Source of the DNA: an uncultured Enterobacteriaceae bacterium
GTDB taxonomy: Bacteria; Desulfobacterota; Binatia; Bin18
NCBI GenBank assembly: GCA_964495015.1
Contig: CAZBUD010000011.1
Location: 10,350-68,507, forward strand
DNA length: 58,158 nt
Direction: 5' to 3'
This document shows, piece by piece, positions 7,076 through 46,392 of the stretch; the stretch's first letter is position 1, and every line of letters begins with the position of its first letter. The notes beneath the pieces are model-generated. The model was not told the origin of the DNA, searched no databases, and saw nothing but the letters and a program-made list of their open reading frames with translations. Made by a program: the position numbers and the translations under genes.

Positions 7076-8707
7076 TCAGCACAGCGCAAACCCCTCATAG
7101 CCGCTGGCGGCGACCTCCCCACACTTCTTCCGATATTCTCGGGCGCTGTTCGCATACAAGAGAACGGCGCGTTTCTTACCGGGAATATTCGCCCCCATAA
7201 ACCAGGAGTCCGCAGCGCTCAATATCGTACCAGCGGCCAATTCGTTGGAGTGCTCCACCCAGGCATCTTCCGCCTCTAGGGTAGGTACAATGCTCGCCAG
7301 GTTCTTCCCACGCAGATGGCCGATGCAATCAGCAATCCATTCCACGACCATCTCGGCGCATACGGTGTAGTTGCATAACGCGGAGTTCGTGCCAATAAAG
7401 AAATTCGGGAAGCCGGCAGTTTGTAGGCCCAGGTAGCTGCGCGGCCCGTCAGCCCATTTGTCCTTGAACGTCTGCCCGCCTTCGCCCCGAATATCGATCC
7501 GGGTTAACGGCCCAGACACCGCGTCAAACCCTGTGGCATAGATGATGATGTCGAATTCGTACTCGGCGCCACCCTGGAGCTTCACGCCTTTTTGGGTGAT
7601 ACGTTCGATCGGTGCATTACGGATATCAACCAGTTTCACATTGTCCCGGTTGTAGGCTTCGTAATACTCCGTCTCCAGGGGGATGCGTTTGGAGCCGAAA
7701 GGATGATCCTTGGGTGCCAGCAATTCAGCCACGACCGGATCGTTGACACGCGCGCGGATCTTGTTGCGAACGAACTCGGCAAAGGTCTCGTTAGCCTCCA
7801 TATTGGTCATGATGTCGTAGTAATTTCCCAGCCATTTCTTAAAACCGGGTAGCGCCCACAACTCCTCGTACTGTGCCATTCGCTCTTCCTCGGAGGCCTC
7901 CAGGGCCGACCGTGGGTCAAAGTCGTGCATAAAGCCGACCGGAGTTTCGCGGCATCTTTTGTGGATTTCCGGGTAGCTGGCCTTCCAGGCCGCCTGGGTC
8001 TCTGGGTTGACCTCTGAATTTCGCAACGGCGCACAGTAGTTCGGCGTACGCTGAAAGACCGTCATATGGCCGACTTCCTTGGCGACAATCGGGATGAGTT
8101 GGACAGCCGTAGCGCCCGTGCCGATGACGCCCGCGCGCTTACCGCTAAAGTCCACCTTTTCCTTCGGCCAGCGGGATGTATGAAACGATTGGCCTTCGAA
8201 GCTGTCGATCCCTTCAAATGGGGGCGTATACTTCGCAGACAGAATGCCCACCGCTCCGATGAGAAATTGCGCGCTCGCGCGCTGGCCATCCTCAATCTGG
8301 ACCTCCCACTGACTCCTGCTCTCATCGTAAACCGCCGAGCTAACCCGAGAATTGAGCTGGATGTCTTTGCGCAGGTCGAACTTATCGGCGACAAAGTTGA
8401 GGTAGCGCTCGTTCTCTCGCTGGCCGGAGAAGTGCTCTTTCCAGTCCCATTCTTGCAACAGTTCCTCCGAGAAGGAGTAACCATAGGTTTCACTCTCGGA
8501 ATCGAAGCGGCAACCTGGGTAACGGTTCCAATACCAGGTGCCACCCACGCCGCCAGCGTCCTCAAAGGACCGCACCGAAAGCCCCATCTTCCGCAGACGA
8601 TACAATTGATATAATCCCACTACCCCGGCGCCAATAATGATCGCGTCGTATTGCTCGACCCCTCCTTTAGCGCGTGGTTTCTGTGGGTGTTGTTCAATCT
8701 TTGCCAT
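7076..8707 (-). CDS. Baeyer-Villiger monooxygenase (type I, PAMO/CHMO-like)
   Basis: [29 protein letters not shown] (FxGxxxHxxxW) and GTGATA motifs. Confidence 0.95.
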   Translation of the reverse strand: MAKIEQHPQKPRAKGGVEQYDAIIIGAGVVGLYQLYRLRKMGLSVRSFEDAGGVGGTWYWNRYPGCRFDSESETYGYSFSEELLQEWDWKEHFSGQRENERYLNFVADKFDLRKDIQLNSRVSSAVYDESRSQWEVQIEDGQRASAQFLIGAVGILSAKYTPPFEGIDSFEGQSFHTSRWPKEKVDFSGKRAGVIGTGATAVQLIPIVAKEVGHMTVFQRTPNYCAPLRNSEVNPETQAAWKASYPEIHKRCRETPVGFMHDFDPRSALEASEEERMAQYEELWALPGFKKWLGNYYDIMTNMEANETFAEFVRNKIRARVNDPVVAELLAPKDHPFGSKRIPLETEYYEAYNRDNVKLVDIRNAPIERITQKGVKLQGGAEYEFDIIIYATGFDAVSGPLTRIDIRGEGGQTFKDKWADGPRSYLGLQTAGFPNFFIGTNSALCNYTVCAEMVVEWIADCIGHLRGKNLASIVPTLEAEDAWVEHSNELAAGTILSAADSWFMGANIPGKKRAVLLYANSAREYRKKCGEVAASGYEGFALC

Positions 8708-8841
8708 AGGATTCCCTCCCTACCGTCCTACTTCTACTCTTCAGCTGTTCTTGTATATCTCACTCCCGCCATTGTTGTGAATGGTGAGGCGCAACAATAA
8801 AGTCCGACAAATTTGGTGCGTGTGTCTTGCTGCGCGCGTCA

Positions 8842-9972
8842 TCATTTCAGCGAGGCATAGGTCGCCTCGATAAGCCCTACCGCCCGCTGATCACCTAGCA
8901 TACTTTCGCCCATTCGGTTCATCACATAGGCGATCGAAGTGCGGGTATCGGGGTCGACCACGGCAATTGACCCGCCCCAACCACCCCAGTAGAAGGCCCC
9001 GGTGCTCGGCGTAAACGGAACCCTCGGGTTCATCAACCCAAAGCCCATTCCGAAAAGCATCCACGCGCCGAGCACGAGATCCTTGCCGTTGGTCTGTTGT
9101 TGCTGTGCCATCGCCACCGTCTCGGGTGCCATCAACCGGACGCCATCGAGCACGCCTCCCGAAGCCAGTGCGCCATGCACGCGTGCCACGGCGCGTGCAT
9201 TACCGATCCCTCCTGCAGCGGGAATTTCCGCCGCGCGCCAGGCTCGCGTTTGCGGCTCCAGCCCCGTCAATGACGCGGACCGAAACGTCCGCACAGCGAT
9301 CGAATTCGGATCGCCAGAAGTCTGATCCATCCTCGCCGCGGGAGGCACCATCTCGCCAACGCGATCATCGTGTTGGGCGCCGAGCCCGATGTGAAAATCA
9401 ACGTCGAGCGGCGTAGCAACTTCCTCGCGGAAAAACGTACCGAGACTGCGGCCGTCTACCCGGCGCAGGATTTCTCCCTGAAGATAGCCTTGCGTGATGG
9501 CATGGTATCCCGAGGCGGTACCAGGCTCCCACCACGGTGCTTGGCGGGCCAACCTGCTGCAGACGTCGTCCCAGTTGTAGAGTTCCTCGATCTGGATAGG
9601 TGTGTCGAAGCCAGACATCCCTGCCGAGTGGCTCATCACATGCCGAACTAGCACGCCTTCCTTGCCGTTCTGAGCGAACTCAGGCCAGTAGCGCGCAACA
9701 GGAGCATCGAAATCGATCAGACCGCGGTCAGCGAGCATCAACATGCAGACGGCGGCCATGGTTTTCGTGGTGGAGTACACATTGACGATGGTGTCCTGCT
9801 GCCATGGCTTACCACTCGGCGCTGAGGAGCCGCCCCACAGATCAACAGCCACCTGTCCGTCGTGTACGACACAAACACTAGCGCCAATCTCATTGTTCGT
9901 CGCGAAGTTCTGGATAAACGCATCGCGGACGGCCTCGAAGCCGTCCGCACAATATCCCTGGGGTTCTACCAT
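8842..9972 (-). CDS. Serine hydrolase, beta-lactamase-fold (family VIII esterase-like)
   Basis: YSTTK (SxxK), MSHSAG, GYHAITQG and WGGWGGS motifs. Confidence 0.9.
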   Translation of the reverse strand: MVEPQGYCADGFEAVRDAFIQNFATNNEIGASVCVVHDGQVAVDLWGGSSAPSGKPWQQDTIVNVYSTTKTMAAVCMLMLADRGLIDFDAPVARYWPEFAQNGKEGVLVRHVMSHSAGMSGFDTPIQIEELYNWDDVCSRLARQAPWWEPGTASGYHAITQGYLQGEILRRVDGRSLGTFFREEVATPLDVDFHIGLGAQHDDRVGEMVPPAARMDQTSGDPNSIAVRTFRSASLTGLEPQTRAWRAAEIPAAGGIGNARAVARVHGALASGGVLDGVRLMAPETVAMAQQQQTNGKDLVLGAWMLFGMGFGLMNPRVPFTPSTGAFYWGGWGGSIAVVDPDTRTSIAYVMNRMGESMLGDQRAVGLIEATYASLK

Positions 9973-9981
9973 AGCTTTCCT

Positions 9982-10746
9982 TCACTGCGTCAATTCTCTG
10001 AGTTTTTCCTTCAAGGCGCTGAGCGCGCTTTTGTTTGCGTTTCTAATAGCCTCCATAGTCGGCGGTTCGACACTGATATCGCCGAGTTCCGCGAGAACGA
10101 CGTGCACTTCGTCATGTCCATCAACGCGTTTCATCTCGCCCAACCAGCGTTGTACATTGGGGAAGGGTGCGAAATCGAAGACGTTGGTAAAACCCGGTTG
10201 CAGTTGCCCAATCTCCACGTACGCGGCAAAGTCGGCCAGCGTGAGGTGCGCGCCCGTCATATAGCGAGATTCCGCGAGCCAACCTGACTCTAATGCGTGC
10301 AGTGCCTTCGTCAGCGTCGCACGTGCGGCCTGTTGCGTGACGTCCGGAATATCCAGATCCTTGCGGATCTTCGGTGCGACCAACCCGATGGAAGCGTCGC
10401 GGACATTGCGATGGTGGTAATGCAAATACCAGTCCACCTTGGCGCGCAGCCGATGATCCGTCGGGTACACGTCATCCCAGCCGTGCCTATTACTCAAATA
10501 ACACATGATGGTGTGCGCCTCACCAAGCACAAAGCCGGTGTCCGGCTCTTCGATCGTCGGAATCGTCCCGCCGGGATTTTTGGCCAGATAGGCCGGATTT
10601 CGGCTACCGGTTTCCCCTTTTGAGCCTGGGTTAATCAGCACCATTTCAAACGGCGTCCGCTTATACAGCATCAGCCACATGACCGCGCGTACCGGTTGGG
10701 AAAACGGCACGCCATACAAGATGAGAGGCTGCGTTGGACTACTCAT
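9982..10746 (-). CDS. Glutathione S-transferase, theta-like
   Basis: SQPVRAV, NPGGTIPTI, LGEA and LTLADFA motifs. Confidence 0.85.
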   Translation of the reverse strand: MSSPTQPLILYGVPFSQPVRAVMWLMLYKRTPFEMVLINPGSKGETGSRNPAYLAKNPGGTIPTIEEPDTGFVLGEAHTIMCYLSNRHGWDDVYPTDHRLRAKVDWYLHYHHRNVRDASIGLVAPKIRKDLDIPDVTQQAARATLTKALHALESGWLAESRYMTGAHLTLADFAAYVEIGQLQPGFTNVFDFAPFPNVQRWLGEMKRVDGHDEVHVVLAELGDISVEPPTMEAIRNANKSALSALKEKLRELTQ

Positions 10747-12573
<1,827 letters not shown>

Positions 12574-12676
12574 TGTGTTAGTCCTCCTTTTTCGATTACA
12601 ATTCTTCAGACACTGTTAGGCAGACAGCATATCGTTTGGAGCGAAAGAAATCTTGACCTGATTTCTTTGGCCCGGA

Positions 12677-13699
12677 CTAATACAGACCCGGCATAACTTC
12701 TTTCGCAAATAGCTCCATAGACCGTTGACTCGTAACTGGACTTAAACCCGGCAGATGCATGCCCATGACAAGATGGGTCGTCCGCATTTTGCTTGTCATG
12801 GCTTCAATCTCACGTCCAACTTCGTCAGGCGTGCCAACCATTGGAGCACCAATGAGCTGATCAGCCACATTACGCAGTTCTGATGGTGGTGGCAGCTGCG
12901 CAAATTTTTCTGCGCCAGCAAAATCCTTGGCTTCAGCCAGCCAGCGGCCGTACCAGGTTAACATATAGTGCAGATGCTCTTGGACATTGCTCCAGGCTTC
13001 CTCTCGCGTCGGGGCTACATGTGCCCAGCGGAGCTGGGCGGCGTGAAAGTCTTTAGGATCACGTCCGTGGGTACGCAGGGCCTTATCATAGGTCTCCTGG
13101 GCAAAGGCGTCATTTGTGCCCAGAAAATGGCAGCCCATCCGGCCGGCGCGCTCGACGGCTTTGGGCTGCCCCGCCCCAATCCACAGTGGTGGATGTGGCG
13201 TCTGCGCAGGCTTGGGGACCAAACTGATGTTCTTGAGGTTGTAGTGCTTGCCTTCATACGAAAACGGATCTTGGGTCCACATGCCTCGGATGACTTCAAT
13301 GCCTTCCTCTAGCAGGGACGCACGTTGTTTGCGCGGAATACCGTAGCCTTCGAACTCGGACGGCGAATAGCCTTGTCCAAAACCCATGTCAAAACGGCCA
13401 TTGGAAATGATATCGACTGTTGCTGCATCTTCTCCAACGCGAACAGCATTGTGCAGCGGCAACAGCAACAGAAACGTACCGATCCGGACCCGACTGGTCA
13501 TGGTCGCCACGGCGCTGGCAATCGGTAAAAGGGAAGGAGAGTAGCCATCTTCCGCAAAGTGATGTTCGGTCAGCCAAACAGTATCATAGCCAAGTTCTTC
13601 TGCTACCTGAGTTTGTTTGAGTTGCTCAGCATAAAACAGGGGCCACGGTTTGCGCCACTGGGGCGGATTGCGAAACGGAAATAATAATCCTACGTCCAT
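12677..13699 (-). CDS. LLM class flavin-dependent oxidoreductase
   Basis: AEELGYDTVWLTEHHF, ATVDIISNGRF and PKPAQTPHPPLWIG motifs. Confidence 0.9.
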   Translation of the reverse strand: MDVGLLFPFRNPPQWRKPWPLFYAEQLKQTQVAEELGYDTVWLTEHHFAEDGYSPSLLPIASAVATMTSRVRIGTFLLLLPLHNAVRVGEDAATVDIISNGRFDMGFGQGYSPSEFEGYGIPRKQRASLLEEGIEVIRGMWTQDPFSYEGKHYNLKNISLVPKPAQTPHPPLWIGAGQPKAVERAGRMGCHFLGTNDAFAQETYDKALRTHGRDPKDFHAAQLRWAHVAPTREEAWSNVQEHLHYMLTWYGRWLAEAKDFAGAEKFAQLPPPSELRNVADQLIGAPMVGTPDEVGREIEAMTSKMRTTHLVMGMHLPGLSPVTSQRSMELFAKEVMPGLY

Positions 13700-13784
13700 G
13701 TCATCCTCCTTGACTTGACATCATAATCCTCAAGAGTGTGACAGATTGACAATCTCCTGAAGGTAGCCATTCTGCTGCTCGCTC

Positions 13785-14020
13785 TCAACGACGGGAACTG
13801 TCCATTCGCGAGATTTTCCGAAATTTGCGTGGCGACATTCCGGTCCAGTGCTAGGAGGCACGTGAGAAAGCGACCGCGTCTTCGAAACCGAGGCGGTCGG
13901 CGATGTCGTCGAGCAAGACATCGCCTCGCCGTAATAATTCCTGAGCCCACACGATGCGGTCCTGCCTTAATAGTGTGGGGAATCGTTTACCCTCGGCCGC
14001 CACCCTCTCTCCGGAAACGA
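13785..14020 (-). pseudogene. AraC-family HTH remnant
   Basis: AQELLRRGDVLLDDIADRLGFEDAVAFSRAS*HWTGMSPRKFRK: the AraC C-terminal signature with a TAG at 13851-13853 and no N-terminal domain. Confidence 0.8.
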
Positions 14021-14034
14021 GAGATCGGCTCTCT

Positions 14035-15663
14035 TTATCGCAGCACAAATTCCTCATAACCGCTGGCGGCAGCCTCAGCACATCTCCTCCGATATTCCGG
14101 GACGGTGTTGGCATACAGGAGTAGAGCAGGGGCTTTGCCGGGAATATTCGTCCCCATAAACCAAGACTTCGTATCGGTCAGGAGCGTATACGAAGCCAGC
14201 TCGTTCGAGTGATCTACCCATTCCTGCTCTACCTGTAGAGTGGGAGCAATGCTTGACAAGTTCTTCTCACGCATATGACCGATACAATCCGCAATCCATT
14301 CCACAATCATCTCAGCGCAGACCATGTAGTTGCAGAACGCTGTACTGGCGGCAATAAAGAAATTCGGGAAACCGGCAGTCTGAATACCGAGGTAGCTGCG
14401 TGGCCCATCGGCCCATTTATCCTTGAACGTCTGACCGGCTTCGCCACGAATATCCATCCGAGTCAGCGGCCCAGACACCGCGTCAAAACCGGTCGCATAG
14501 ATGATGACGTCGAATTCGTATTCGGCATCCTGGGTCTTTACCCCTTTAGCGGTAATACGTTCGATCGAGGCCTTACGTACGTCAACCAATTTCACATTGT
14601 CCCGGTTGTAGGCCTCGTAATAGTACGTTTCCAAGGGGATACGCTTCGCACCGAACGGATGGTCCTTGGGGGCCAGCAGTTCTGCTACTTCAGGATCATG
14701 CACGCGCTCGCGGATCTTGTTGCGGACGAACTCGGCAAACGTCTCATTGGCTTCCCGGTTGGTCATGATGTCCTGGAAATTACCCAGCCATTTCGTGAAC
14801 CCAGGTAGCGCCCACAACTCTTCATATAGTGCCAGCCGTTCCTCCTCCGAGACCTCTAGGGCCGAGCGTGGGTCGAATTCATGTTCAAAACCTGCCGAGG
14901 TTTCGCGACACTTTTTATGGATTTTTGGATAGTTGGCCTTCCATGCGGCCTGGGTCTCTGGATTGACCTCCGAATTGCGCAATGGCGCGGCATAGTTCGC
15001 GGTACGCTGAAAGACAGTCAGATGGCCGGCTTCCTCCGCGACGATCGGGATAAGCTGAATTGCCGTAGCACCTGTACCAATGACGCCGACCCGCTTACCA
15101 CTCAAGTCCACCTTTTCCTTTGGCCAGTTAAATGTGTGAAATGATTCGCCAGCGAAACTGTCGATGCCTTCAAATGGAGGCGTATACTTCGCGGACAGGA
15201 CACCGACCGCGCCAATGAGAAATTGCGCTCGAACGCGTTGGCCCCCCTCGACCTGGACCTCCCAGCAATGCTCGTTCTCATCATAGACCGCCGATCTCAC
15301 CCAAGAATTGAGCTGGATGTGTGGGCGCAGATTGAATTTGTCCGCGACAAAGTTGAGGTAGCGCTCGTTCTCCGGCTGGCCGGAAAAGTGCTCTTTCCAG
15401 TCCCATTCTTGCAGCAGCTCCTCTGACCATGAATACCCATAGGTTTCACTTTCGGAATCAAAGCGACAGCCTGGATAGCGGTTCCAATACCAGGTACCAC
15501 CCACGCCGCCAGCGTCCTCAAAGACCCGCACCGAAAGCCCCATCTCCCGGAGCTTGTACAGTTGGTATAATCCCGATACCCCGGCGCCGATAATGATCGC
15601 GTCATATTGCTCAACCGCTCCGTTCCCGTTTGGCTTCTGTGGATGTTGATCAGTGTTCGCCAT
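14035..15663 (-). CDS. Baeyer-Villiger monooxygenase, close paralog of 7076-8707
   Basis: Same BVMO motifs (FAGESFHTFNWP) and long identical peptide stretches shared with 7076-8707. Confidence 0.95.
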   Translation of the reverse strand: MANTDQHPQKPNGNGAVEQYDAIIIGAGVSGLYQLYKLREMGLSVRVFEDAGGVGGTWYWNRYPGCRFDSESETYGYSWSEELLQEWDWKEHFSGQPENERYLNFVADKFNLRPHIQLNSWVRSAVYDENEHCWEVQVEGGQRVRAQFLIGAVGVLSAKYTPPFEGIDSFAGESFHTFNWPKEKVDLSGKRVGVIGTGATAIQLIPIVAEEAGHLTVFQRTANYAAPLRNSEVNPETQAAWKANYPKIHKKCRETSAGFEHEFDPRSALEVSEEERLALYEELWALPGFTKWLGNFQDIMTNREANETFAEFVRNKIRERVHDPEVAELLAPKDHPFGAKRIPLETYYYEAYNRDNVKLVDVRKASIERITAKGVKTQDAEYEFDVIIYATGFDAVSGPLTRMDIRGEAGQTFKDKWADGPRSYLGIQTAGFPNFFIAASTAFCNYMVCAEMIVEWIADCIGHMREKNLSSIAPTLQVEQEWVDHSNELASYTLLTDTKSWFMGTNIPGKAPALLLYANTVPEYRRRCAEAAASGYEEFVLR

Positions 15664-15742
15664 AGTATTCCCTCCTTACAGTTCTACTTAGATTTTCAAG
15701 CGACTCTCGTCTCTCTTTCCTGCGATTGACGTGCCTTCGCGG

Positions 15743-16510
15743 TCAAAAAGGCTCGAAGGCCAGCCCGCAATCAATTCGCTCCCCTAACCCCAAATTGAAA
15801 GCGGCGAGCGTTTTGCCCAGCGTACCGCGGGCCATCATATCAATCTTTGACGTATACTCCACTTTGTCGAGGACTTCGGCTAGACGCCGGGCAGGGATAG
15901 CACCCGTCATCTCAGTTGCCTGCATACCCGTCCGCGCTCGACTCAATGCGCAGCCGATACTGAATGCTATCTGGCCCTCTTTTGCCATCGCCACGATATG
16001 ACACTGCGGCTTGCCCTCGACCTTGAGGTCAGCCAGAGCATCCGACAGCACCATACCCGCATATGGGTTGATGCGGAGTAACACAACGTCTGGCTCAATG
16101 GGCGTTTCCGCCAGGGGGCCATAGGTAATGGCACCAGGCTTCTCCGGTACCACCGGGATATGAGGAAATACCTCTTCCGCTACCCAGCCACTCTCCAGCA
16201 AGGTCGCCACATCAGCACCTTCGGCTGCCTCTTCTAAGGTCTTAAGGCCATGAGTAAGGCTGCCCACGCTACAGTTGCCACGGTCTTCGGCAACTGTACT
16301 AAACGTTCGCTCCCCAGCTTTGATCCAGAACACACAACCAGCCGGGACCCGCCCAGTCCGTCCGTCGTCTGTTGGCTCGGCCAGCGGCTCGTCAAAGGCG
16401 GGGACGTCCTCTGGACGTTCGGGACTAAAAGTAATCGCAAGCGGCGCTGCGACTGGCCGCAACGCCTTGATGAGTCGTTCAGATAAGCTGTTCCAATCCG
16501 GTGCTGTCAT
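15743..16510 (-). CDS. DUF169-like Cys-containing protein (possible C-terminal frameshift near 15825)
   Basis: VPAGCVFW, NCSVG, YGPLAETPIEPDVV, GKPQC and GCALSR pattern. Starts 33 bp after the LinD-like stop. Confidence 0.7.
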   Translation of the reverse strand: MTAPDWNSLSERLIKALRPVAAPLAITFSPERPEDVPAFDEPLAEPTDDGRTGRVPAGCVFWIKAGERTFSTVAEDRGNCSVGSLTHGLKTLEEAAEGADVATLLESGWVAEEVFPHIPVVPEKPGAITYGPLAETPIEPDVVLLRINPYAGMVLSDALADLKVEGKPQCHIVAMAKEGQIAFSIGCALSRARTGMQATEMTGAIPARRLAEVLDKVEYTSKIDMMARGTLGKTLAAFNLGLGERIDCGLAFEPF

Positions 16511-16543
16511 TCTGCTAATTCCTTTGCAGGGAGGAAAAGGTTC

Positions 16544-18082
16544 TCACCCTTCAATAATATGAAACGCCTGTGCACCGATCTCGGTTGAGATCTCGATCTC
16601 ACCATCCTGCACAGTCCAAGTGTCACACGGCTGCCCATCGATGAGTACACGACAGGCATCGGGCTGCTGCAGATTTTTGATGCGGAAGTTAGTCGGTCGT
16701 CCATTAGCCGCTGGGTCAGCAATATATGTCTGCAAGACCAGCGTTTTCTTCTCTTGATCGTAATATGCCTGAGATAAGCCCACGCTCGGAAAGTCCACAC
16801 CATAGACTGTGGGTTGATCAAACTTTTCCAGGTTCGGATCGGTAAACATGCGTGACCAGGAGCCTTGCCCCCCGACTTCAGGCACCATAAGATTGGCGTT
16901 GTACTGCCCACGTGGATACGGCTCGTTCAATCCAAAGCCATAGTAAAATTCGCCAGCGTCACGATCCCAGGTAGGCTCGTAGTGAGCCTCGACATGGGCC
17001 TGTAGTTTTTTGACCGTCTCCGTGTCCCCAAGCTCGTTAGCCATGGCCAGCATACGGACTGTCATATATTGATGATCGTCTGTTGCCCCCGGTACGAGGA
17101 TCACATGCGCCGTGCCATCGGGTTTTTCAATCAGATAGTCTCTCTTGATCGCTTCGTAGAAGCGGGTTGCCATAGCCGGGTCATTCGGCAGCAGGTAAAA
17201 ACCCCACATAAGCCAGCCAAATACCGCAGGAATGGTGTGATTCAGATCAACCAGTGGATCGTAATACATCGTGACCCACTCGGGAGGGATTGGATCTTCA
17301 GACGGAGCGATAAAATTTTTCTTGGCGTACTCGTACCACTGCTCAAAAGCGCGAAACGTATTCCCATCGTAGAACGTGTCGGAAAGCCTCAAACCGAGGC
17401 TGGTGACCGTGAGTCAAAGCGGCCACACTTTAGTGTTCTCTCAATGCGAGCCTTCGGGTCTGCCACACCATTGTTCGCTGATGAACTCATTCATGCTGGT
17501 GTGGGTATAATGAAACGTGTGCTCGCCATTATTCACAACCGAGAAGCCGTCATTATATTTTTTGTCACCAGACGCATACAGGTGTAAGCCCATAGTCAGC
17601 GACAGAAAGCCTTTGTAGTAGATTGCTCCAGCGGCCTTGATCGGATCGGGTTCATACCCCCACGGGTCAACGCCATTGGCCGCCCAGCCTGGCGAGTCGT
17701 ATTTGCCACGCAGTTCGTTCGGAATGAGCAAGGGGAAAAATTCATCCGGATACTTCTCTCGCTGTGGGTCCGGGCCGATCTGTTGGGACCAATCGTAGGT
17801 ACCCCAATACGCGGTAATCCGGTCAACCAGGCTTTCAAGAATCTCACTATACACCTCGCGCCAGGCAGGCGTGATGTCACTCATCATTGCCACTGCATAG
17901 GATGAGTCCACGGCATCGAAGCGATGAAAATTACCCATGGGTGGCAGGCTTTTATCGTCCCACATATCAGATGGCCGACCGTCTTTGGACCAGTCATCGT
18001 CCACCATGGCCTTACGGTAAAGATATTTCAGCCAGCCGCGCGCCTTTTCAGACAGCTCGGTCTGGACGGTGTCTTGCGCCAT
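16544..18082 (-). CDS. Linalool dehydratase/isomerase-like protein with two in-frame TGA codons (predicted Sec214 and Sec223)
   Basis: One continuous frame from ATG 18082 (SD GAGGAGG) to 16544, reading ...EGSH-TGA-ENTKVWPL-TGA-LTVTSLGLRLSD.... LinD-like segments TPAWREVY, DPIKAAGAIYYKGFLSL and GDKKY. The U-x8-U spacing matches LinD's catalytic C-x8-C. Confidence 0.85.
17385..17416 (-). promoter_or_regulatory. SECIS-like hairpin for the second UGA (17416-17414)
   Basis: UGA + 12 nt + AGCCUC-gguuu-GAGGCU: perfect 6-bp stem with a G-initiated loop. Confidence 0.7.
17416..17443 (-). promoter_or_regulatory. SECIS-like hairpin for the first UGA (17443-17441)
   Basis: UGA + 9 nt + AAAGUG-uggc-CGCUUU (6 bp including one G-U pair, G at loop position 2). 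The stem ends on the U of the second UGA. Confidence 0.55.
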
Positions 18083-18240
18083 ACTTCCCTCCTCTTTTGT
18101 TTCGCGAAGCAGGACCACGCTGTGTTGTGTCCTCAATAGCAGCTCAACAGAGCAAATGAAACGAGTTTGCCTATCGCTATTTACGATCTGACCTAGTAAT
18201 GACACTAGACAGAACGTCACAACCACCGGAGAAAACTGGC

Positions 18241-19299
18241 ATGGCGAAAGACCAAAATGAACTTAATGGACCTGATAAATTTGCGACAACAGCTATCGAG
18301 TCGATTAATGCTCTATCATTTCCGTGGCAGACTCGTGATCCCTTCCTCTTTTGTGTCTTCCATAATGACCCCTATCCAAAAGGCAACGACAAGCTTGGTC
18401 CTGCAGCGTCCTTAGCAGGCCGTGACATCGGACAGGACTTCGACCCCAGGAACGGCTGGCGCATGTACCACGGCGATGTGGTTCCCGGCTTCCCACAGCA
18501 TCCCCATAGAGGTTTTGAGACTGTCACCATTGTGAACCAGGGCTTTGTGGACCATTCCGACTCACTGGGGGCAACTGCCAGATACGGGGCTGGAGACGTG
18601 CAGTGGTTGACTGCGGGGAGAGGCATAGTCCATGCCGAAATGTTTCCGCTGGTGAGCAGCGATGCCGACAATCCGCTTGAGCTCTTTCAGATTTGGCTGA
18701 ACCTGCCAGCCAAGGACAAGATGGTCGATCCTCACTTCACCATGTTGTGGGAAGAGTCTATCCCGGGCAGGGAGGTGAAGGATGCCGAGGATCGTTGCAC
18801 GCAGCTGAAAACCGTCGCAGGATCGTACGGCGATATCAAAGCACCGTCCCCGCCCCCGGATTCATGGGCTGCAGCTCCCGAAACGAACGTCAGCATTTGG
18901 ACTATCAAGATGGAAGCGAACGCTACCTGGACCTTGCCCGCCACAAAGCCAGGAGTTAGCCGGACGCTGTATTTCTACGCAGGATCAGACCTCCACATCG
19001 GGCGGGAGCGTATCCCTGCCAATCACATGGTAGCGCTGAAGGCAGATGTAGCACTGCCTCTCCGTGCGAGCTCAACTTCTGCTGAGCTGCTCCTTCTCGA
19101 AGGCCGTCCGATCCAAGAGCCCGTCGCCCACTATGGACCCTTTGTTATGAACACACGTCAAGAACTCCAACAAGCGTTTGCTGATTATCAGCGCACCCAG
19201 TTCGGTGGCTGGCCGTGGGCTAATAATGCGCCAGTGCATGCCCGACAAGAGGGACGATTCGCCAAACATGTCGATGGCCGGCTTGAGAAGCCGGTGTAG
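18241..19299 (+). CDS. Pirin family protein
   Basis: DPFL, GFPQHPHRGFETVT, AGRGIVHAEMF, QIWLNLP and YGPFVMNT motifs. Start is uncertain (18199 or 18241). Confidence 0.92.
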   Translation: MAKDQNELNGPDKFATTAIESINALSFPWQTRDPFLFCVFHNDPYPKGNDKLGPAASLAGRDIGQDFDPRNGWRMYHGDVVPGFPQHPHRGFETVTIVNQGFVDHSDSLGATARYGAGDVQWLTAGRGIVHAEMFPLVSSDADNPLELFQIWLNLPAKDKMVDPHFTMLWEESIPGREVKDAEDRCTQLKTVAGSYGDIKAPSPPPDSWAAAPETNVSIWTIKMEANATWTLPATKPGVSRTLYFYAGSDLHIGRERIPANHMVALKADVALPLRASSTSAELLLLEGRPIQEPVAHYGPFVMNTRQELQQAFADYQRTQFGGWPWANNAPVHARQEGRFAKHVDGRLEKPV

Positions 19300-19326
19300 G
19301 CTTGGGTCATGTTTCCATGTTTCCTT

Positions 19327-19406
19327 GTGTAGGGGCGAGGTATCCTCACCCGGACGTCTAGCCGAGAGGCAGCGAAGCGGAGTACAGGAACGCCCTGCCC
19401 ACAGGG
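19327..19406. repeat. Degenerate GTAG-type REP-like element between convergent genes
   Basis: GTGTAGGGGCGAGG...CGCCCTGCCCACAGG. A related GTAGGGGCAATTCATGAATTACCC occurs near 39762. Confidence 0.4.
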
Positions 19407-19468
19407 AGAAACCTCCGCTCGAATCTCCCGGATTCCAATCCGTTCCATCCCGATTACACTGATCACGA

Positions 19469-20638
19469 TCAGCCACGCAGTGGCCGAAAGAAGGCACGGA
19501 TATCTTCGACCAAGCTTTCGGGTTCCTCCATTGACGCAAAGTGTCCGCCTGACGGCATCACGGTCCAGCGCTGGAGATTATAATAGCGTTCGGCCCAGCT
19601 GCGTGGCATCAACGCAACCTCTTCCAGAAATACTGCACAGCCCGTAGGTGCTTCGACTACTGGCGAACGATCGTGGGCCGGCTGCCACACATGATGGGCA
19701 GCTTCGTAATAATAACGCGCCGAAGTGCCGAAACTATTTGTGAGCCAATACAGCATGACCGTATTGAGCAAATCGTCTTTGCTAAAACGAGACTCAACGT
19801 CACCCTTGCAGTCACTCCACGTACGACGCTTTTCTACCAGCCAGGCCGCTAGACCGGCCGGCGAGTCATTCAACCCGAAGGCCAGCGTCTGCGGTTTGGT
19901 CGATTGCAGTCGGAAGTAGCCGGCTTCCGCTTCAAAGAAATGCGCGGTCTTTTCGAACCACCCCTCTTCGTCCCGTCCATATTCTGATGCCTCGGGCATA
20001 CCTGCGCTGAAGAAATCGAGCGGGACCATCAGATGAATATGCAGCCCAATGAGGTGCTCAGCATACTTGTGGCCCAGTTGGGCAGACAGAATAGCTCCCC
20101 AGTCTCCGCCTTGGGTAGCGAACTTCTCATAACCGAGCACATCTTGCATGAGTTTGACCCACAGGTCGGCCGTGCGCGAATAGTTAATGCCCGGAACGTT
20201 CAGGGGTGAGGAGAAGCCGTAGCCAGGCAAAGACGGCACGACCACATCAAAAGAGTCAGTAGGATCTCCACCAAACGCAGCCGGATCGGTAAGCGGGCGA
20301 ATCACCTTGCGCAGATCCCAGAATGTCCACGGCCAGCCGTGATTCAAAATAAGGGGCATGGGGTTCGGCCCTTTGCCTGGCTCATGAATGAAGTGGATGG
20401 GCACATCCTCAATCGTAGTCTTAAAGTGGGAGAAGGCGTTCATCTCCCGTTCATGTTTGCGCCAGTCGTACTGCTCGATCCAATACTCCACCAACTCCTT
20501 AAGATAGGCTGCGTTCGTGCCATACTCCCACCCGTCGTTGGCGAAGTCCTGCGCCCAGCGGATTTTAGTCAAACGCTCGCGTAGGTCGGTCAGAGCTTCT
20601 TCTGGGATACTGATCGTGAAAGGTTCTGAGGTACTCAT
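19469..20638 (-). CDS. Epoxide hydrolase (microsomal/EHN-type alpha/beta hydrolase)
   Basis: HGWPW, PSLPGYGFS, QGGDWG and GGHFASME motifs. ATG 20638 follows SD AAGGAGG. Confidence 0.93.
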   Translation of the reverse strand: MSTSEPFTISIPEEALTDLRERLTKIRWAQDFANDGWEYGTNAAYLKELVEYWIEQYDWRKHEREMNAFSHFKTTIEDVPIHFIHEPGKGPNPMPLILNHGWPWTFWDLRKVIRPLTDPAAFGGDPTDSFDVVVPSLPGYGFSSPLNVPGINYSRTADLWVKLMQDVLGYEKFATQGGDWGAILSAQLGHKYAEHLIGLHIHLMVPLDFFSAGMPEASEYGRDEEGWFEKTAHFFEAEAGYFRLQSTKPQTLAFGLNDSPAGLAAWLVEKRRTWSDCKGDVESRFSKDDLLNTVMLYWLTNSFGTSARYYYEAAHHVWQPAHDRSPVVEAPTGCAVFLEEVALMPRSWAERYYNLQRWTVMPSGGHFASMEEPESLVEDIRAFFRPLRG

Positions 20639-20804
20639 ACGCGCCTCCTTGGTATGCTCTTCGAGGTAGGCTGCAACGCTTCCTGCATCCGTAGTCTGTA
20701 GCAGTTTTCTCCGTTCATGTATCAGACTCACGCCGCGTGTCATGACGAGGTGTGACCCAACTCGGTAGAAACCGCCGCTCTGTTTCCGCATTTGCGCTTA
20801 CATA

Positions 20805-21176
20805 CTATATGCAGCAGCTCGTGTCTGAGTAAGCCAGAATGCGAACTGAGGTAGAAGCTTTCAGGATGGTAACCTCTCTTAGGGAGACAGCGGCAATCAA
20901 TAGCTCATTAAATCTGCGGTGCAGCTTAAAGTGTTGCGCTTCCTGCCCCATCCAGGCTTTGGCTTCTTCCCGGAGCGCAGAGCCGGTGATGTGCTTCGAC
21001 GCTTGACAGATCGAATCAGTAATAAAGGGCTCCATATGTGGCAGCGGCACTGAGGCACCGTTGGCCAATTGGCTGAACACAGGTTTGGCGGGATTCCAGC
21101 ACGGCTTTAAGTTCTCCGGAAACTCAAACTGCACCTTACGAACCAAGATCCCTTGAGACGTTTACTGTTCGCTCAT
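20805..21176 (-). pseudogene. Truncated predicted metal-dependent hydrolase remnant
   Basis: MSEQ*TSQGILVRKVQFEF...PHMEPF...GQEAQHFKLHRRFN: stop at codon 5, and similarity is lost after about 85 aa. Confidence 0.7.
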
Positions 21177-21247
21177 AGTCTCACCTTCGCTTTGTGCTAG
21201 CAATCAGACGGCCTTTTCTGCCTCTGTCTTTGCAGTTCCCACGATTC

Positions 21248-22426
21248 TCATACTGCAAATTGAACGGGCAGGGTCTGCGGGCCTCGGACAATGAGCGACG
21301 CTACCTGAGCGATCTGTTCGGTCGCACAGGTGAATGGGGGACAGTCAAACAAGAGCGCCTCTAATGCCTTCCGACCTTCCAGACGAGCGAGCGGGGCGCC
21401 TAAGCAATAGTGGATACCATAACCAAATCCGACATGATCCTGAGGATTGCGTTCTACATCAAAGCGATTCGGTTCAGAGAATTTCCGCTCATCACGGTTG
21501 GCGGAACCCAGTAGCAGGAAAACGTTCTGTCCTGCCGGGATCTTCCCGCCTTTCAACTCCACGTCCTGCGCGGCCCGGCGAAAAATCACCTGGACAGGAG
21601 ATTCATAACGCAAAACTTCTTCCACGAGTGCAGGCACGAGGGCACAATCAGCGCGGACTTTTGCCAATTCATCTGGATGGTCGATCAGGCTAAGGACCGC
21701 GTTGCCAATCAAGTTCGTCGTAGTCTCGTTCCCCGCTAACAGTAGCAAGACGGCCAAGGCGAGGATCTCAGCTGAAGAAAGCATATCGCGCTCTTCCTCC
21801 GCTTGCACAAGAGCGGTAATCACGTCGTCTCCAGGGTCGGTCCGTCGGCGTTCGATCATGCGCTCAAAGTAGGCACGCAACTCAACTTCGCTCTTTCGAA
21901 TCTGAGCCCGATCAGCCTCGTCAGTCGGACGACTGGTGGCGCTAACCACGTCATCTGACCAACGCTTAAAATCATCGCGCCGCTCGGGCTCGACGCCGAG
22001 CATCTCCGCAATCACAATGGTAGGCAGCGGTCCGGAAAATGTCGAGACTAAGTCGCCCTCCGGTTGCCCGCGCAGCGCTTCCAGCAGCTCTTGCGTAATC
22101 GCCTGCACGCGCGGCTCAAGTGCGCGGATGAGACGCGGCGTAAAGCCTTTATTGGCCAACTTCCGTAACCGAGTATGATCGGGAGGATTCATGTCAAGAA
22201 TCCACGGCACTTCTGGAACGGGATTGAGATCACCCAAAGCCTCTGTGGTGAATACGGAAGATGAGAAGAGATGTGGATTGCGCAAGGCAAAGTCCACATC
22301 CGCATAGCGGCTCAGCGCCCAGCACTGAAAAGATTCAAGCCAGATAACTGGTGCTTTGTCTCTCAGCTCAGCATAATACGGATACGGATTGGCAATCACT
22401 TCTGGGGCAAGAGGGTTGAAGTTCAT
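21248..22426 (-). CDS. Cytochrome P450
   Basis: AGNETT I-helix, EEVLR (ExxR) and FGYGIHYCLG heme-binding motifs. Confidence 0.97.
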   Translation of the reverse strand: MNFNPLAPEVIANPYPYYAELRDKAPVIWLESFQCWALSRYADVDFALRNPHLFSSSVFTTEALGDLNPVPEVPWILDMNPPDHTRLRKLANKGFTPRLIRALEPRVQAITQELLEALRGQPEGDLVSTFSGPLPTIVIAEMLGVEPERRDDFKRWSDDVVSATSRPTDEADRAQIRKSEVELRAYFERMIERRRTDPGDDVITALVQAEEERDMLSSAEILALAVLLLLAGNETTTNLIGNAVLSLIDHPDELAKVRADCALVPALVEEVLRYESPVQVIFRRAAQDVELKGGKIPAGQNVFLLLGSANRDERKFSEPNRFDVERNPQDHVGFGYGIHYCLGAPLARLEGRKALEALLFDCPPFTCATEQIAQVASLIVRGPQTLPVQFAV

Positions 22427-22848: not shown

Positions 22849-24594
22849 TTAGGCCGCTCGACCGCGGCGCAGCAGCCCTCCCGGTGTAGCGCCAGTACAG
22901 TTGCCGTCCCGGACTGTCTCAACCCCGTTGACCATAATATGGCGGTAGCCTTCTGCTTTCTGCACCCGCCGCCACTCGCCAGCTGGCAGGTCATGGGCAA
23001 CCTCGACGGGCAGCAGTTTGAGATTGGCGAGATCGTAGACCACAATATCTGCGGCCAAGCCTTCCCGCAGGATACCGCGATCCTTGAACTGCGCAGCCCA
23101 CGCCGGTAGTGCGCTTAAGCGGAAATGGGCTTCTTCCAAGGTCAGTGAATGAGTATCGCGCACCAGCCAGGTCAGCATATCTGTGGGATACACCCCTAAC
23201 GTCAGAAACTTGATATGTGCCCCACCGTCAGACGAACCAGGAATGGCGACCGGAGAGCTCATCATCTCCTTATGGACTTGGGCATCACCATTGACGACAG
23301 GTCCTAACCAGTCTGCCTCAAGGTCGTCCGCCACGCTGATGTCCAAGATGACGTCAATGACATGCTTATTTTCCCGTTTGGCGATCTTTCCGACCGACTG
23401 GTTCAGATATTTCTCACGTAGCTCTGGATTATTGATCGTAATCGCAATGAACTTATGCAGTTCACCAAAGATAAAATCACGCGCCGGCGTGCCGGCGTCG
23501 TACTCTGCCCGCATAGGTTTACGCCTGTTCGGATCGGCTAATTTTGTTCGCTTCTCTTCGACCGTGCCCAGGGTTGCCTCGCGCCAGGTCTCATTGTCAT
23601 CAAAGAGATTCCAGTCTTTAAAATTGATGGTAAATGGCGCGCGGACCGTTGCCGCTTGTCCATATACTGGAATCCCTTGCTCGACCATGTCGTTCAGCCA
23701 CCTGAGCTGTATGCGCAGCGGTTCAATAGCCTGTTCGTGTGCCACCAGGGCATTATAAAGCACAGCGTGATTGCTCTGTTTCGCCAGTTGCGTATTAAAG
23801 TCCATATCGCGACCCATACCGATGCCTTCGTCATTCGACGACGCGCTCGACTGGGTAAACTGGATGAAGCCAATACCATGTGAGTCTAACGCTTGGGCCA
23901 TAGTCAGATAGAACTCATCCGACAGGACGTCCGAGATCATCAGCGTGCCATCCTAGTCGCGCTGCACCGAGGCTGCACTGTCCGGGAAAAGTCGCTGCGC
24001 GCCCCAGCCGACGGCACCCGCTTGCATGGCTTCGTGGAATAGCTGCACCGCATTTCGCACTTCTTTTTCGTTTGGTAAGCGTTTCTTAGCCTCAGCAAAT
24101 CCGCCCTTCACGTAGGCAACCAGGGGCGTGACAGGAACAAGCTGCGAGAGATTAATGCCTAGCGGCAGACGGTCAAGATGATCCATCCACTCGGGGAAGG
24201 TCTCCCAATCCGGTGCCATGGACACTTTCATGGGTGCGAGTGGGATGGCTTCGTTGCACGACAGGGACAGCAGAGCGCGATCAAAGTCTTTGCCATGCAC
24301 CTGCGCGAAACCAAAACCACAGTTGCCGATGGTTACAGAAGTGACGCCATGCAAGCCGCCGATGGAGCAGTACGGGTCCCAGTGAACCTGCGCATCGTAG
24401 TGTGTATGCAGGTCAATAAAACCAGGCGCGACGATCATGCCGCCCGCATCTATGACCTTGCCCCCATCACTCTTCTTGAGTCGCCCAATCTGAGCAATCT
24501 TGCCGTTCTTGAGCCCGATATCCGCCTTGTAGCGCGGCACCCGCGTGCCGTCGACAATCATACCACCGGTAATGATGGTATCGAACTGTGGCAT
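22849..24594 (-). pseudogene. N-acyl-D-amino-acid deacylase-family amidohydrolase interrupted by one in-frame TAG
   Basis: ORFs 23953-24594 and 22849-23940 share a frame: ...VQRD-TAG-DGTLMISD.... Motifs PGFIDLHTHYD and SDGGAH are intact. Confidence 0.85.
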
Positions 24595-46391: not shown

Positions 46392-46392
46392 T

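Follow-up and report, generated by a model that had tools for sequence, protein, structure and literature searches.

The formate dehydrogenase genes of E. coli are the studied cases of bacterial SECIS elements. As set out in a 2026 review, the bSECIS model has an apical loop of 3–9 nt with G at its first or second position, or both, an upper stem of 4–16 bp, a distance of 16–37 nt from UGA to loop, and a minimum free energy (MFE) of ≤ −7.5 kcal/mol (PMC13188914). Bacterial double selenoproteins have UxxU or UxxxxU motifs (Table 1, PMC13188914). Their UGA codons are 9–15 nt apart. Hence, one hairpin could reach both. The eukaryotic selenoprotein P mRNA also has several UGAs and, according to PMC5727441, more than one RNA structure is said to affect UGA redefinition. 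The closest characterised enzyme is linalool dehydratase/isomerase (LDI) of Castellaniella defragrans (PDB 5HLR, 5G1U). Its residues Cys170 and Cys179 are reduced, catalytic and essential, as described in PMC6600392.

Here, we analysed a stretch of 58,158 nucleotides from a Candidatus Binatia genome, referred to as the window. An Ldi-family gene on the minus strand contains two in-frame UGA codons, UGA1 and UGA2, separated by 27 nt (U-x8-U). As in known bacterial cases, a hairpin (hairpin 2) lies in coding sequence just 3′ of UGA2 and its loop starts GGU. Unlike those cases, there is a second UGA 27 nt upstream and an extra stem (stem 1′), which encloses UGA2 and has no early loop G. The gene resembles those with UxxU or UxxxxU motifs in that a single short active-site motif contains both UGAs, but the 27 nt between them exceed the spacing found there. 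Selenoprotein P differs further. Its SECIS elements work from the 3′ UTR over a long distance, together with other factors, whereas the two structures described here lie inside 60 nt of coding sequence. The protein shares its Pfam family, and the 8-residue spacing of its two key positions, with LDI. However, the sequences are distant, Sec is predicted in place of Cys, and the lengths are 512 aa here and ~370 aa for LDI.

Results

An Ldi-family gene with two predicted Sec codons

The features of the locus are listed in Table 1. Standard ORF calling splits the gene, which runs from window position 18082 to 16544, into ORFs of 261 aa and 282 aa. Read-through translation places both internal TGAs in the frame of a single gene. 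The product matches Pfam Ldi with 75.6 bits, compared to a gathering cut-off of 26.1 (E 6e-21, residues 193–424). No family was matched in an NCBIfam scan of the protein. The ATG start is common to 16 orthologs. The terminal stop of the gene is also TGA and, hence, TGA is not reassigned throughout.

Table 1. Features of the Ldi-family locus, in window coordinates
Feature	Position	Strand	Details
Ldi-family (PF18566) gene	16544..18082	(-)	512 codons plus TGA stop; in-frame TGAs at codons 214 and 223
UGA1, predicted Sec	17441..17443	(-)	Codon 214; aligns to LDI Cys170
Stem 1′, 5′ arm GUGGCCG	17420..17426	(-)	14 nt after UGA1; covers Trp-Pro codons; invariant in 16/16 full-length orthologs
Stem 1′, loop, 10 nt, CUUUGACUCA	17410..17419	(-)	Contains UGA2
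UGA2, predicted Sec	17414..17416	(-)	Codon 223; aligns to LDI Cys179; in loop of stem 1′
Stem 1′, 3′ arm CGGUCAC	17403..17409	(-)	Single base 17402 between arm and hairpin 2
Hairpin 2, predicted SECIS of UGA2	17385..17401	(-)	AGCCUC-GGUUU-GAGGCU; encodes Ser-Leu-Gly-Leu-Arg-Leu

The two ORF calls are what would be expected if the TGAs were real stops, in a pseudogene or between two genes, and no Sec were made. This explanation is extremely improbable. Both TGAs, with an intact frame, recur in 18/18 orthologous places in related genomes. Among family HSPs, 57 have an in-frame stop at residue 214 and 117 have one at residue 223; the only others are 3 singletons. Paralogs encode Cys at codons 214 and 223 and the frame is conserved on either side. 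The host genome has selA, selB, selD and tRNA-Sec, all above score cut-offs, and ARAGORN calls a tRNA-SeC with anticodon tca. Furthermore, selA was found in 5/5 other genomes tested that have a gene with both TGAs. The covarying SECIS 3′ of UGA2, described below, also argues against real stops.

We aligned the protein to LDI chain 5hlr_A (E 1.7e-6, residues 190–419). Both TGAs are opposite the two Cys of LDI, the numbers of which were counted by hand on this alignment, starting at LDI residue 112, beyond the Cys48–Cys101 disulfide cap. Together with the Cys paralogs, this places both UGAs at active-site Cys positions, in line with a preliminary description of the locus, made from its letters, that spoke of active-site loop codons. 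We conclude that the minus-strand gene is predicted to encode an Ldi-family enzyme in which both catalytic Cys are replaced by UGA-encoded Sec, within the motif H-U-ENTKVWPL-U.

Beside this gene, the host genome has 14 or more likely selenoprotein genes. Briefly, of 20 TGA-plus-hairpin candidates tested, 14 belong to UGSC, CMD, AhpC-TSA, DsbA-like or GrdB-like families. The distance from UGA to loop in these 14 genes is 16–21 nt, with 18 nt the commonest (7/14). All 7 UGSC genes, which were identified without the use of RNA features, have NGUNN pentaloops. The remaining six candidates were unsupported as selenoprotein genes. For L227 and L228, the Pfam domain is wholly to one side of the TGA, while L222, L223, L224 and L232 have no family.

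Cys and Sec states in the family

We surveyed 184 loci. These were the best 80 per collection and, hence, the proportions of the classes should not be read as population frequencies. With the states of codons 214 and 223 given in order, there were 51 TGA/TGA, 57 Cys/TGA, 76 Cys/Cys and no TGA/Cys loci. Thus, TGA occurs at codon 223 in 108 of these best-scoring loci and at codon 214 in 51, always with TGA at codon 223. The 184 loci collapse to 144 distinct regions (27 TGA/TGA, 50 Cys/TGA and 67 Cys/Cys). The TGA/TGA genes are not one clade; trees need 4–5 state changes (AU test, p 1e-63). We also searched the order of a Dehalococcoidia TGA/TGA genome. Among 99 genomes, there were matches in 8, and these included six TGA/TGA genes.

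Hairpin 2 behaves as a bacterial SECIS

The 6-bp stem of hairpin 2 starts 12 nt after UGA2 and its 5-nt loop starts 18 nt after UGA2. Folded alone, hairpin 2 has an energy of −8.6 kcal/mol, and only 1/200 shuffles was as good. It agrees with the bSECIS model in loop and stem size, early G, spacing and MFE. An Rfam scan of window positions 17250–17550 gave no match at E up to 10. We built a covariance model from SECIS hairpins of the host genome, using 11 of 12. The GrdB-like hairpin was dropped because MAFFT misaligned it, and two hairpins with 4-nt loops (L230 and L231) were excluded. Hairpin 2 was the best match to this model in the whole gene (11.2 bits, rough E 0.064).

Conservation of hairpin 2 follows UGA2. 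The hairpin is present in 77/77 distinct UGA2-bearing genes of the survey. These 77 sequences give 65 distinct rows, in which 390/390 cells are paired; this was reached by 0/500 shuffles. Compensatory changes occur at one pair (CG 54, UA 7, GC 2 and UG 2). The loop is GGUYU, GGGYU or AGUUU across the 65 rows. Conversely, hairpin 2 is missing from 66/67 distinct Cys/Cys genes and kept only in L137. Mean energies are −8.3 kcal/mol for TGA/TGA and −8.2 kcal/mol for Cys/TGA genes, compared to −2.25 kcal/mol for Cys/Cys genes. The preliminary description had named this hairpin as a SECIS and suggested that conservation be compared between TGA and Cys orthologs; the comparison upholds its proposal (77/77 UGA2 genes against 1/67 Cys/Cys genes). 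The idea that this stretch carries a protein code and a recoding RNA in the same letters also gains support. We conclude that, on the pattern of sequence conservation, hairpin 2 behaves as a real bacterial SECIS and is the putative SelB-binding element of UGA2. Very probably, the gene encodes a selenoprotein with two Sec residues and hairpin 2 is its SECIS.

An element associated with UGA1

The preliminary description gave each UGA its own SECIS. For UGA1, this was hairpin 1, formed by AAAGUG (17431–17426), UGGC and CGCUUU (17421–17416). It starts 9 nt after UGA1 and ends on the U of UGA2. On re-reading the sequence, we found the letters and spacings of both drawn hairpins to be exact, on the minus strand. 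Six pairs of hairpin 1 can be drawn in the window, with a G at the second loop position, and the hairpin is intact in 5 distinct Binatia sequences that have CUU before UGA2. Against this, the energy of hairpin 1 alone is −2.7 kcal/mol, compared to the −7.5 kcal/mol threshold, and 27/200 shuffles are as good. At 15 nt from UGA1, its loop is closer than the minimum of 16 nt, and the hairpin departs from bacterial SECIS elements in spacing, MFE and conservation. Three sites in the arms vary among 16 distinct full-length orthologs and none is compensated. CUG or UUG breaks one pair in 13/16 orthologs and one AUG for GUG breaks another. The preliminary description would have abandoned hairpins no better conserved with TGA than with Cys, and by that measure hairpin 1 falls. 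A forced fold has positive energy in all non-Binatia TGA/TGA lineages. Finally, hairpin 1 competes for bases with the far more stable and conserved stem 1′, the two being mutually exclusive. Hairpin 1 is absent from the MFE and centroid structures of the region, which contain stem 1′. The ortholog comparisons uphold hairpin 2 and speak against hairpin 1 in the form first drawn. That AAAGUG-UGGC-CGCUUU (17431–17416) is the SECIS of UGA1 can be considered most improbable.

Stem 1′ has 7 bp and an energy of −8.6 kcal/mol in the window, and its loop is 21 nt after UGA1. Spacing and MFE are within the bSECIS model. The loop, with 10 nt, is larger than the 3–9 nt of the model and begins C, U, rather than with an early G. 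In 12/16 orthologs, which have a CUG codon, two inner pairs generate a UGACU pentaloop with G second. Elsewhere, the loops of equivalent stems are 6–7 nt. An early G is found in CGUGAY (Dehalococcoidia) and CGUGAC (L172), and is absent from CCUGAA (L052 and L122) and CAAUGAC (L188, L193 and L210). The 11-hairpin SECIS model of the host genome, which allows 5-nt loops only and would score a 10-nt loop poorly, does not report stem 1′.

Codons ACG, GTC and ACC of the 3′ arm are invariant in 16/16 orthologs, and sites that vary within the stem 1′ segment are only in the loop (codons 222 and 224). Synonymous variability among the 16 orthologs is 0.093 in codons 215–233, compared to 0.225 over the whole gene. 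Of 494 synonymous-variability windows, the 10 with the lowest values all start at codons 209–219. Every variable site in codons 215–233 is unpaired in the model with stem 1′ and hairpin 2.

The stem is also associated with UGA1 across the family. Using a threshold of −8.8 kcal/mol, chosen after the data were seen, an equivalent stem was found in 27/27 TGA/TGA, 4/50 Cys/TGA and 10/67 Cys/Cys distinct surveyed genes. Pairing is in three different registers among TGA/TGA lineages. The Cys/TGA sister L066 has ACC and ATC in the 3′ arm region and a weak stem (−3.4 kcal/mol). Three differences, CCA/CCG, ACC/ACG and ATC/GTC, separate it from the Binatia TGA/TGA clade, and each of them builds stem 1′. 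The six TGA/TGA genes from the Dehalococcoidia order have stems identical to those already surveyed and, hence, this set showed no within-lineage covariation. Three independent contrasts fall on well-supported branches (5 in total). The stem accompanies UGA1 in 3/3, for which a sign test on so few pairs gives p 0.25.

Synonymous recoding placed the observed stem in the lower tail for 7/7 TGA/TGA representatives (18 to 194 of 2000), with p-values above 0.05 in three of the seven. Corresponding values for 16 Cys/TGA representatives were 50 to 480 of 500. In some lineages, recoded controls already average −7 to −8 kcal/mol, because UGGCC (Trp-Pro) is fixed by the protein family-wide and is followed by GC-rich Gly/Ala codons. 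Taken alone, the folding energy of the region is unremarkable compared to shuffles. For the 59-nt stretch, with its MFE of −18.5 kcal/mol (z −1.30), 23/200 shuffles fold as well; for an 81-nt stretch, the number is 33/200. We conclude that stem 1′, and not hairpin 1, is probably the element tied to UGA1. Hence, of the claim that each UGA has its own SECIS, the association of a second hairpin with UGA1 stands, but the hairpin originally drawn does not.

Discussion

The loop of hairpin 2 is 45 nt from UGA1, outside the 16–37 nt range. We tentatively propose that stem 1′ may be an adapter, which would shorten the path from UGA1 to a single SelB-binding hairpin. With the ribosome at UGA1, stem 1′ would be folded and 24 nt looped out. 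This would bring SelB bound to hairpin 2 about as near to the ribosome as it is for UGA2. The ribosome would then melt stem 1′ and advance nine codons. Hairpin 2, by then at the canonical 18 nt, would bind another SelB complex, and UGA2 would be decoded in the ordinary bacterial way. The proposal fits the lack of TGA/Cys genes among the 184 loci (best 80 per collection), and the NGUNN pentaloops seen in 7/7 UGSC genes of the host but not in stem 1′. It also fits the host SECIS model, which ranks hairpin 2 first in the gene and leaves stem 1′ unreported. Against it, 14/117 distinct genes without UGA1 have equally strong stems. Our literature search found no precedent for a hairpin that collapses a spacer. 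A broader interpretation is more doubtful. Here, one SECIS could serve two distant UGAs via a collapsible stem, and such stems, in three registers, would have had more than one origin within a widespread and uncatalogued family.

Two other explanations for UGA1 decoding bear on the same observations. Stem 1′ could itself be the SelB site of UGA1, with hairpin 2 serving UGA2 only. This would retain the scheme of the preliminary description, with another first hairpin. To our knowledge, bacterial SECIS elements all act locally, as they would here. The stem 1′ loop, 21 nt from UGA1, is within 16–37 nt and at the edge of the 16–21 nt seen in 14 other genes of this genome, and the energy of −8.6 kcal/mol passes the −7.5 kcal/mol threshold. 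The UGACU pentaloop of 12/16 orthologs has G second, and the CGUGAY and CGUGAC loops have G second and U third. However, the loops of L052/L122 and L188/L193/L210 have no early G, and no motif except UGA2 itself is common to the loops of all lineages. Other SECIS elements of the host genome have NGUNN pentaloops, and stem 1′ is not among the matches to the model made from these hairpins. Independent elements should also allow TGA/Cys genes, but these account for 0/184 loci (best 80 per collection). We consider a pair of independent SECIS elements rather unlikely. Alternatively, stem 1′ could be a by-product of UGGCC and GC-rich codons, or have another role, such as mRNA stability. UGA1 would then be decoded via hairpin 2 at 45 nt or by unrecognised features. 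Equally strong stems in genes without UGA1 (14/117), recoded controls at −7 to −8 kcal/mol, the three recoding p-values above 0.05, the underpowered contrast test (p 0.25, 3–5 pairs) and ordinary folding z-scores all fit this explanation. It accounts poorly for a stem found in 27/27 distinct TGA/TGA genes, in three registers. All seven recoding tests were in the lower tail, whereas the 16 Cys/TGA controls were not. The three substitutions separating Binatia from L066 are all stem-building, the lowest synonymous variability of the gene is at this position with variation at unpaired sites only, and 45 nt is beyond the range of the model. We regard a stem without a role in recoding as unlikely.

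The family offers a natural experiment on a little-studied question, namely how two UGAs 27 nt apart are decoded when a SECIS must be near its UGA. Related genes in the surveyed loci show Cys/Cys, Cys/Sec and Sec/Sec states. Sec/Sec always occurs with the extra stem, and Sec/Cys was not seen. A spacing rule for two Sec codons would aid the production of recombinant multi-Sec proteins in bacteria.

The Ldi family is absent from the 119 prokaryotic selenoprotein families of the 2026 review (Table 1, PMC13188914). Searches of the literature identified no paper joining linalool dehydratase, or Binatia, and selenocysteine. Among the matches listed in searches for bacterial decoding of double UGAs, none dealt with it; they concerned Lokiarchaeota, selenoprotein P and other eukaryotic or general topics. 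No passage of PMC1794560 deals with two Sec residues. Ldi-like enzymes, from many phyla and with one or two predicted Sec, may thus be a new selenoprotein family. The predicted Sec residues are at positions used for acid/base or nucleophilic catalysis in LDI. Neighbouring genes encode flavin monooxygenases, an epoxide hydrolase and a P450.

An Ldi-family gene with two in-frame TGA codons

Standard ORF calling cuts the locus into frames of 261 and 282 aa. Read through both TGAs, it is a single frame with a terminal stop that is also TGA. An ATG at 18082, common to 16 orthologs, gives a gene of 512 codons. The product matches Pfam Ldi (PF18566; 75.6 bits, cut-off 26.1). Both TGAs, UGA1 at codon 214 and UGA2 at codon 223, align with cysteines of linalool dehydratase/isomerase chain 5hlr_A (residues 170 and 179, counted on the alignment). 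In that enzyme, Cys170 and Cys179 are described as reduced, catalytic and essential (PMC6600392). Among family loci, in-frame stops fall at the two TGA codons in 57 and 117 HSPs; elsewhere there are three singletons only (L091 residue 128, L191 residue 318 and L141 residue 509). Locus L239 (G065:C5, another genome searched) has two TGAs inside the family match; with TGC at codon 214, one of them must sit at another position of that match.

Both TGAs occur in 18 orthologous places across 61 related genomes (74-100% identity). A paralog at 46% identity also has both, and one at 40-41% identity has TGC and TGT. We added 160 loci from species genomes and metagenomes, the best 80 of 566 and the best 80 of 484 confirmed stretches. 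Classified by codons 214/223, the 184 motif-covering loci comprise 51 TGA/TGA, 57 Cys/TGA and 76 Cys/Cys, proportions that reflect which loci were kept; none is TGA/Cys. Some contigs are present twice; with identical regions removed, 27, 50 and 67 distinct genes remain, respectively.

Trees separate a clade of Cys/Cys genes only from a mixed clade dominated by Cys/TGA. The TGA/TGA state takes five changes on a FastTree tree (8 short rows left out), at least three of them forced by well-supported branches, and four on an IQ-TREE tree built from 52 selected rows. A single TGA/TGA clade, a group defined after the first tree had been seen, was rejected by the AU test (52 rows; log-likelihood difference 361.6, p 1e-63).

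No NCBIfam model matches this Ldi-like family. Table 1 of a 2026 review, covering 119 prokaryotic selenoprotein families (PMC13188914), contains neither an Ldi or PF18566 entry nor a U-x8-U motif. The new families named in the accessible part of the deep-Sep paper do not include it either. In mostly non-subscription journals, main texts only, we found nothing tying linalool dehydratase or Binatia to selenocysteine, and nothing on bacterial SECIS elements serving a pair of UGAs. The putative Ldi-like selenoprotein family is out of the ordinary; it may have been mentioned earlier.

The genome carries the selenocysteine trait

Matches to selA (586.5 bits), selB (379 bits, both parts counted), selD (303.8 bits) and tRNA-Sec (67.2 bits, adjoining selA) all exceed their cut-offs. 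ARAGORN also identifies a tRNA-SeC (anticodon tca). All five other TGA/TGA genomes tested have selA. The selD match (G000:C6:70540-71454, L018) lies inside a 762-aa open frame without internal stop; hence, this selD seems to be joined to a further domain and to be of the Cys, not the Sec, type.

We scanned the genome for TGAs flanked by open frame in both directions and followed by a hairpin whose loop has an early GU. This yielded 105 places, of which 20 were checked against Pfam. Known selenoprotein families account for 14 (7 UGSC, 3 CMD/AhpD-like, 2 AhpC-TSA, 1 DsbA-like and 1 GrdB-like), with the TGA at a UxxC-type motif as read off translations, not profile alignments. A family search blind to RNA found seven UGSC genes with one TGA apiece, and the scan had recovered all seven. 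Hence, this organism seems as a rule to use an NGUNN pentaloop that starts 16-21 nt past the UGA, as in the 14 members of known families. Selenoproteins seem abundant in this genome (candidates among L213-L231). One of the seven UGSC genes (PF24696) lies in the window, with its TGA at the UGSC motif and a hairpin, GUCGGGC-UGUAU-GCUCGAC, starting 11 nt after it. L224, which has no Pfam match, and the GrdB-like L225 have a U/C-PVCHQ motif in common.

Hairpin 2 is the probable SECIS element of UGA2

The preliminary description proposed two tandem SECIS-like hairpins, one per UGA. Its letters are exact when the minus strand is read.

Features of the window discussed in the text
Feature	Position	Strand	Detail
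Ldi-family gene	18082-16544	minus	
UGA1	17443-17441	minus	9 nt, then 5' arm of hairpin 1
Hairpin 1	17431-17426, 17421-17416	minus	AAAGUG, UGGC loop, CGCUUU
Stem 1'	17426-17420, 17409-17403	minus	GUGGCCG paired with CGGUCAC; UGA2 within 10-nt loop
UGA2	17416-17414	minus	12 nt, then hairpin 2
Hairpin 2	17401-17396, 17390-17385	minus	AGCCUC, GGUUU loop, GAGGCU
UGSC-family gene	45849-46760	minus	in-frame TGA 46115-46113
Amidohydro_3 amidohydrolase	22849-24594	minus	TAG 23955-23953
Gene neighbours	7076-22426		

All RNA energies are nearest-neighbour predictions. The 59-nt stretch folds at -18.5 kcal/mol (z -1.30) and is not distinguished by energy alone, because 23 of 200 shuffles are equally stable. 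Both the MFE and centroid structures contain hairpin 2 and an alternative upstream stem, stem 1', with one base between them; hairpin 1 is unused. Folded alone, hairpin 2 and stem 1' each give -8.6 kcal/mol (1 and 5 of 200 shuffles as good, respectively) and hairpin 1 gives -2.7 kcal/mol (27 of 200).

Published bSECIS criteria (PMC13188914) are a 3-9 nt loop, a 4-16 bp stem, G in the first two loop positions, a UGA-to-loop distance of 16-37 nt and an energy of at most -7.5 kcal/mol. Hairpin 2 falls within every one of these limits. It is present in 77/77 distinct UGA2-bearing genes. Over 65 distinct rows, 390/390 cells pair, which 0/500 shuffles equalled. One pair is CG in 54, UA in 7, GC in 2 and UG in 2; three others vary via G-U. 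Mean energies are -8.3 (TGA/TGA), -8.2 (Cys/TGA) and -2.25 kcal/mol (Cys/Cys). The hairpin imposes the peptide (S/G)LGLRL, including an AGG Arg codon, and Cys/Cys genes differ in residues there. A covariance model of 11 other SECIS hairpins from this genome, restricted to 5-nt loops, places hairpin 2 above everything else in the gene, both strands included (11.2 bits, rough E 0.064). By these sequence comparisons, hairpin 2 is predicted to be an ordinary bSECIS linked to UGA2, as first proposed.

Only one Cys/Cys gene keeps it. L137 (TGT/TGT, on a metagenome contig) has GGCCUC-GGUUU-GAGGCU intact and is nested among Cys/TGA genes; nearby L135 has a partly decayed hairpin 2. L137 seems to have changed from Sec to Cys recently and to have retained its SECIS as a fossil.

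A different stem accompanies UGA1

Hairpin 1, drawn originally as the SECIS of UGA1, does not hold up. Its fold is weak, with a loop beginning 15 nt after UGA1. Within its arms, 12 of 16 distinct full-length orthologs have CUG and one has UUG, versus CUU in the window; one has AUG instead of GUG. None of these three variable sites is compensated. When forced, hairpin 1 has positive energy in every non-Binatia TGA/TGA lineage.

We sought the best structure enclosing an unpaired codon 223 within the 39 nt from codon 214 to hairpin 2. Stem 1' reaches -8.8 kcal/mol or lower in 27/27 TGA/TGA genes (mean -10.8), 4/50 Cys/TGA (mean -5.2) and 10/67 Cys/Cys (mean -5.7), the threshold being the weakest TGA/TGA value, set afterwards. 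Its 5' arm always comes from UGGCC of invariant Trp-Pro codons, and the partner takes three registers: GUGGCCG/CGGUCAC in Binatia orthologs; GCCCA/UGGGC plus extensions in the Binatia paralog, Dehalococcoidia and L172; and UGGCCA/UGGCCA in L165, with a seventh pair (CUGGCCA/UGGCCGG) in L188, L193 and L210. What the lineages share is a shape reached by convergence, not column-by-column covariation.

L066, the Cys/TGA sister of the Binatia clade, has CCA, ACC and ATC versus the clade's CCG, ACG and GTC. Each of the three differences helps to form the stem, whose energy is -3.4 kcal/mol in L066 versus -9.4 to -11.6 in the clade. Across 16 orthologs, which average 0.893 nucleotide identity, codons 215-233 show a synonymous variability of 0.093 versus 0.225 gene-wide, and the ten lowest-variability windows of 494 all begin at codons 209-219. 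When stem 1' and hairpin 2 are modelled together, none of the variable sites in codons 215-233 is paired.

In seven TGA/TGA representatives, 59, 40, 194, 125, 47, 172 and 18 of 2000 synonymous recodings matched or beat stem 1'; in 16 Cys/TGA representatives, 50 to 480 of 500 did. Counting against the stem, three of the seven p-values exceed 0.05, some lineages have recoded controls that are stable to begin with, strong stems also occur in 14/117 genes without UGA1, and 99 genomes of the Dehalococcoidia order yielded no further stem variants. Independent contrasts number only 3 to 5; stem 1' goes with UGA1 in 3/3 (sign test p 0.25). Both hairpin 2 and stem 1' are conserved; the former is SECIS-like and goes with UGA2, the latter goes with UGA1. 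The idea of one hairpin per UGA survives to that extent, with a different hairpin from the one drawn.

Strong hairpins (-11.3 to -15.0 kcal/mol) that hold UGA2 in the apical loop, such as CCGCUC-UGACU-GAGCGG, occur in four Cys/TGA loci (L101, L113, L125 and L120). These could be chance, pre-adaptation or recent UGA1 loss.

Decoding of the two UGAs

The hairpin 2 loop is 18 nt from UGA2 and 45 nt from UGA1, outside the 16-37 nt range. Stem 1' starts 14 nt after UGA1, approximately where SECIS stems start in this genome, and ends one base from hairpin 2. SelB would bind hairpin 2 and decode UGA2 at 18 nt. With the ribosome at UGA1, folded stem 1' would take 24 nt out of the path, allowing SelB on hairpin 2 to reach the ribosome. 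Once stem 1' had melted, hairpin 2 would serve UGA2.

The chief alternative, which we consider somewhat less probable, is that stem 1' is a second SelB site. Its loop begins 21 nt after UGA1 and, in the 12/16 orthologs with CUG, can form a UGACU pentaloop whose second base is G. In the window, however, this loop has no G near its start, stem 1' does not resemble the SECIS elements found elsewhere in the genome, its loops share no motif besides UGA2, and no TGA/Cys gene was seen (0/184 loci). For these reasons we tentatively favour stem 1' as a possible adapter linking UGA1 to hairpin 2.

Neighbouring genes

The neighbours encode three FMO/Baeyer-Villiger-type flavin monooxygenases, a luciferase-like monooxygenase, an epoxide hydrolase, a P450, a beta-lactamase-fold hydrolase, a GST, a pirin and a DUF169 protein. 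The neighbourhood is compatible with an oxidative hydrocarbon or terpenoid pathway. The Amidohydro_3 amidohydrolase is divided by one in-frame TAG into two same-frame ORFs; a pseudogene, a sequencing error and recoding are all possible reasons.
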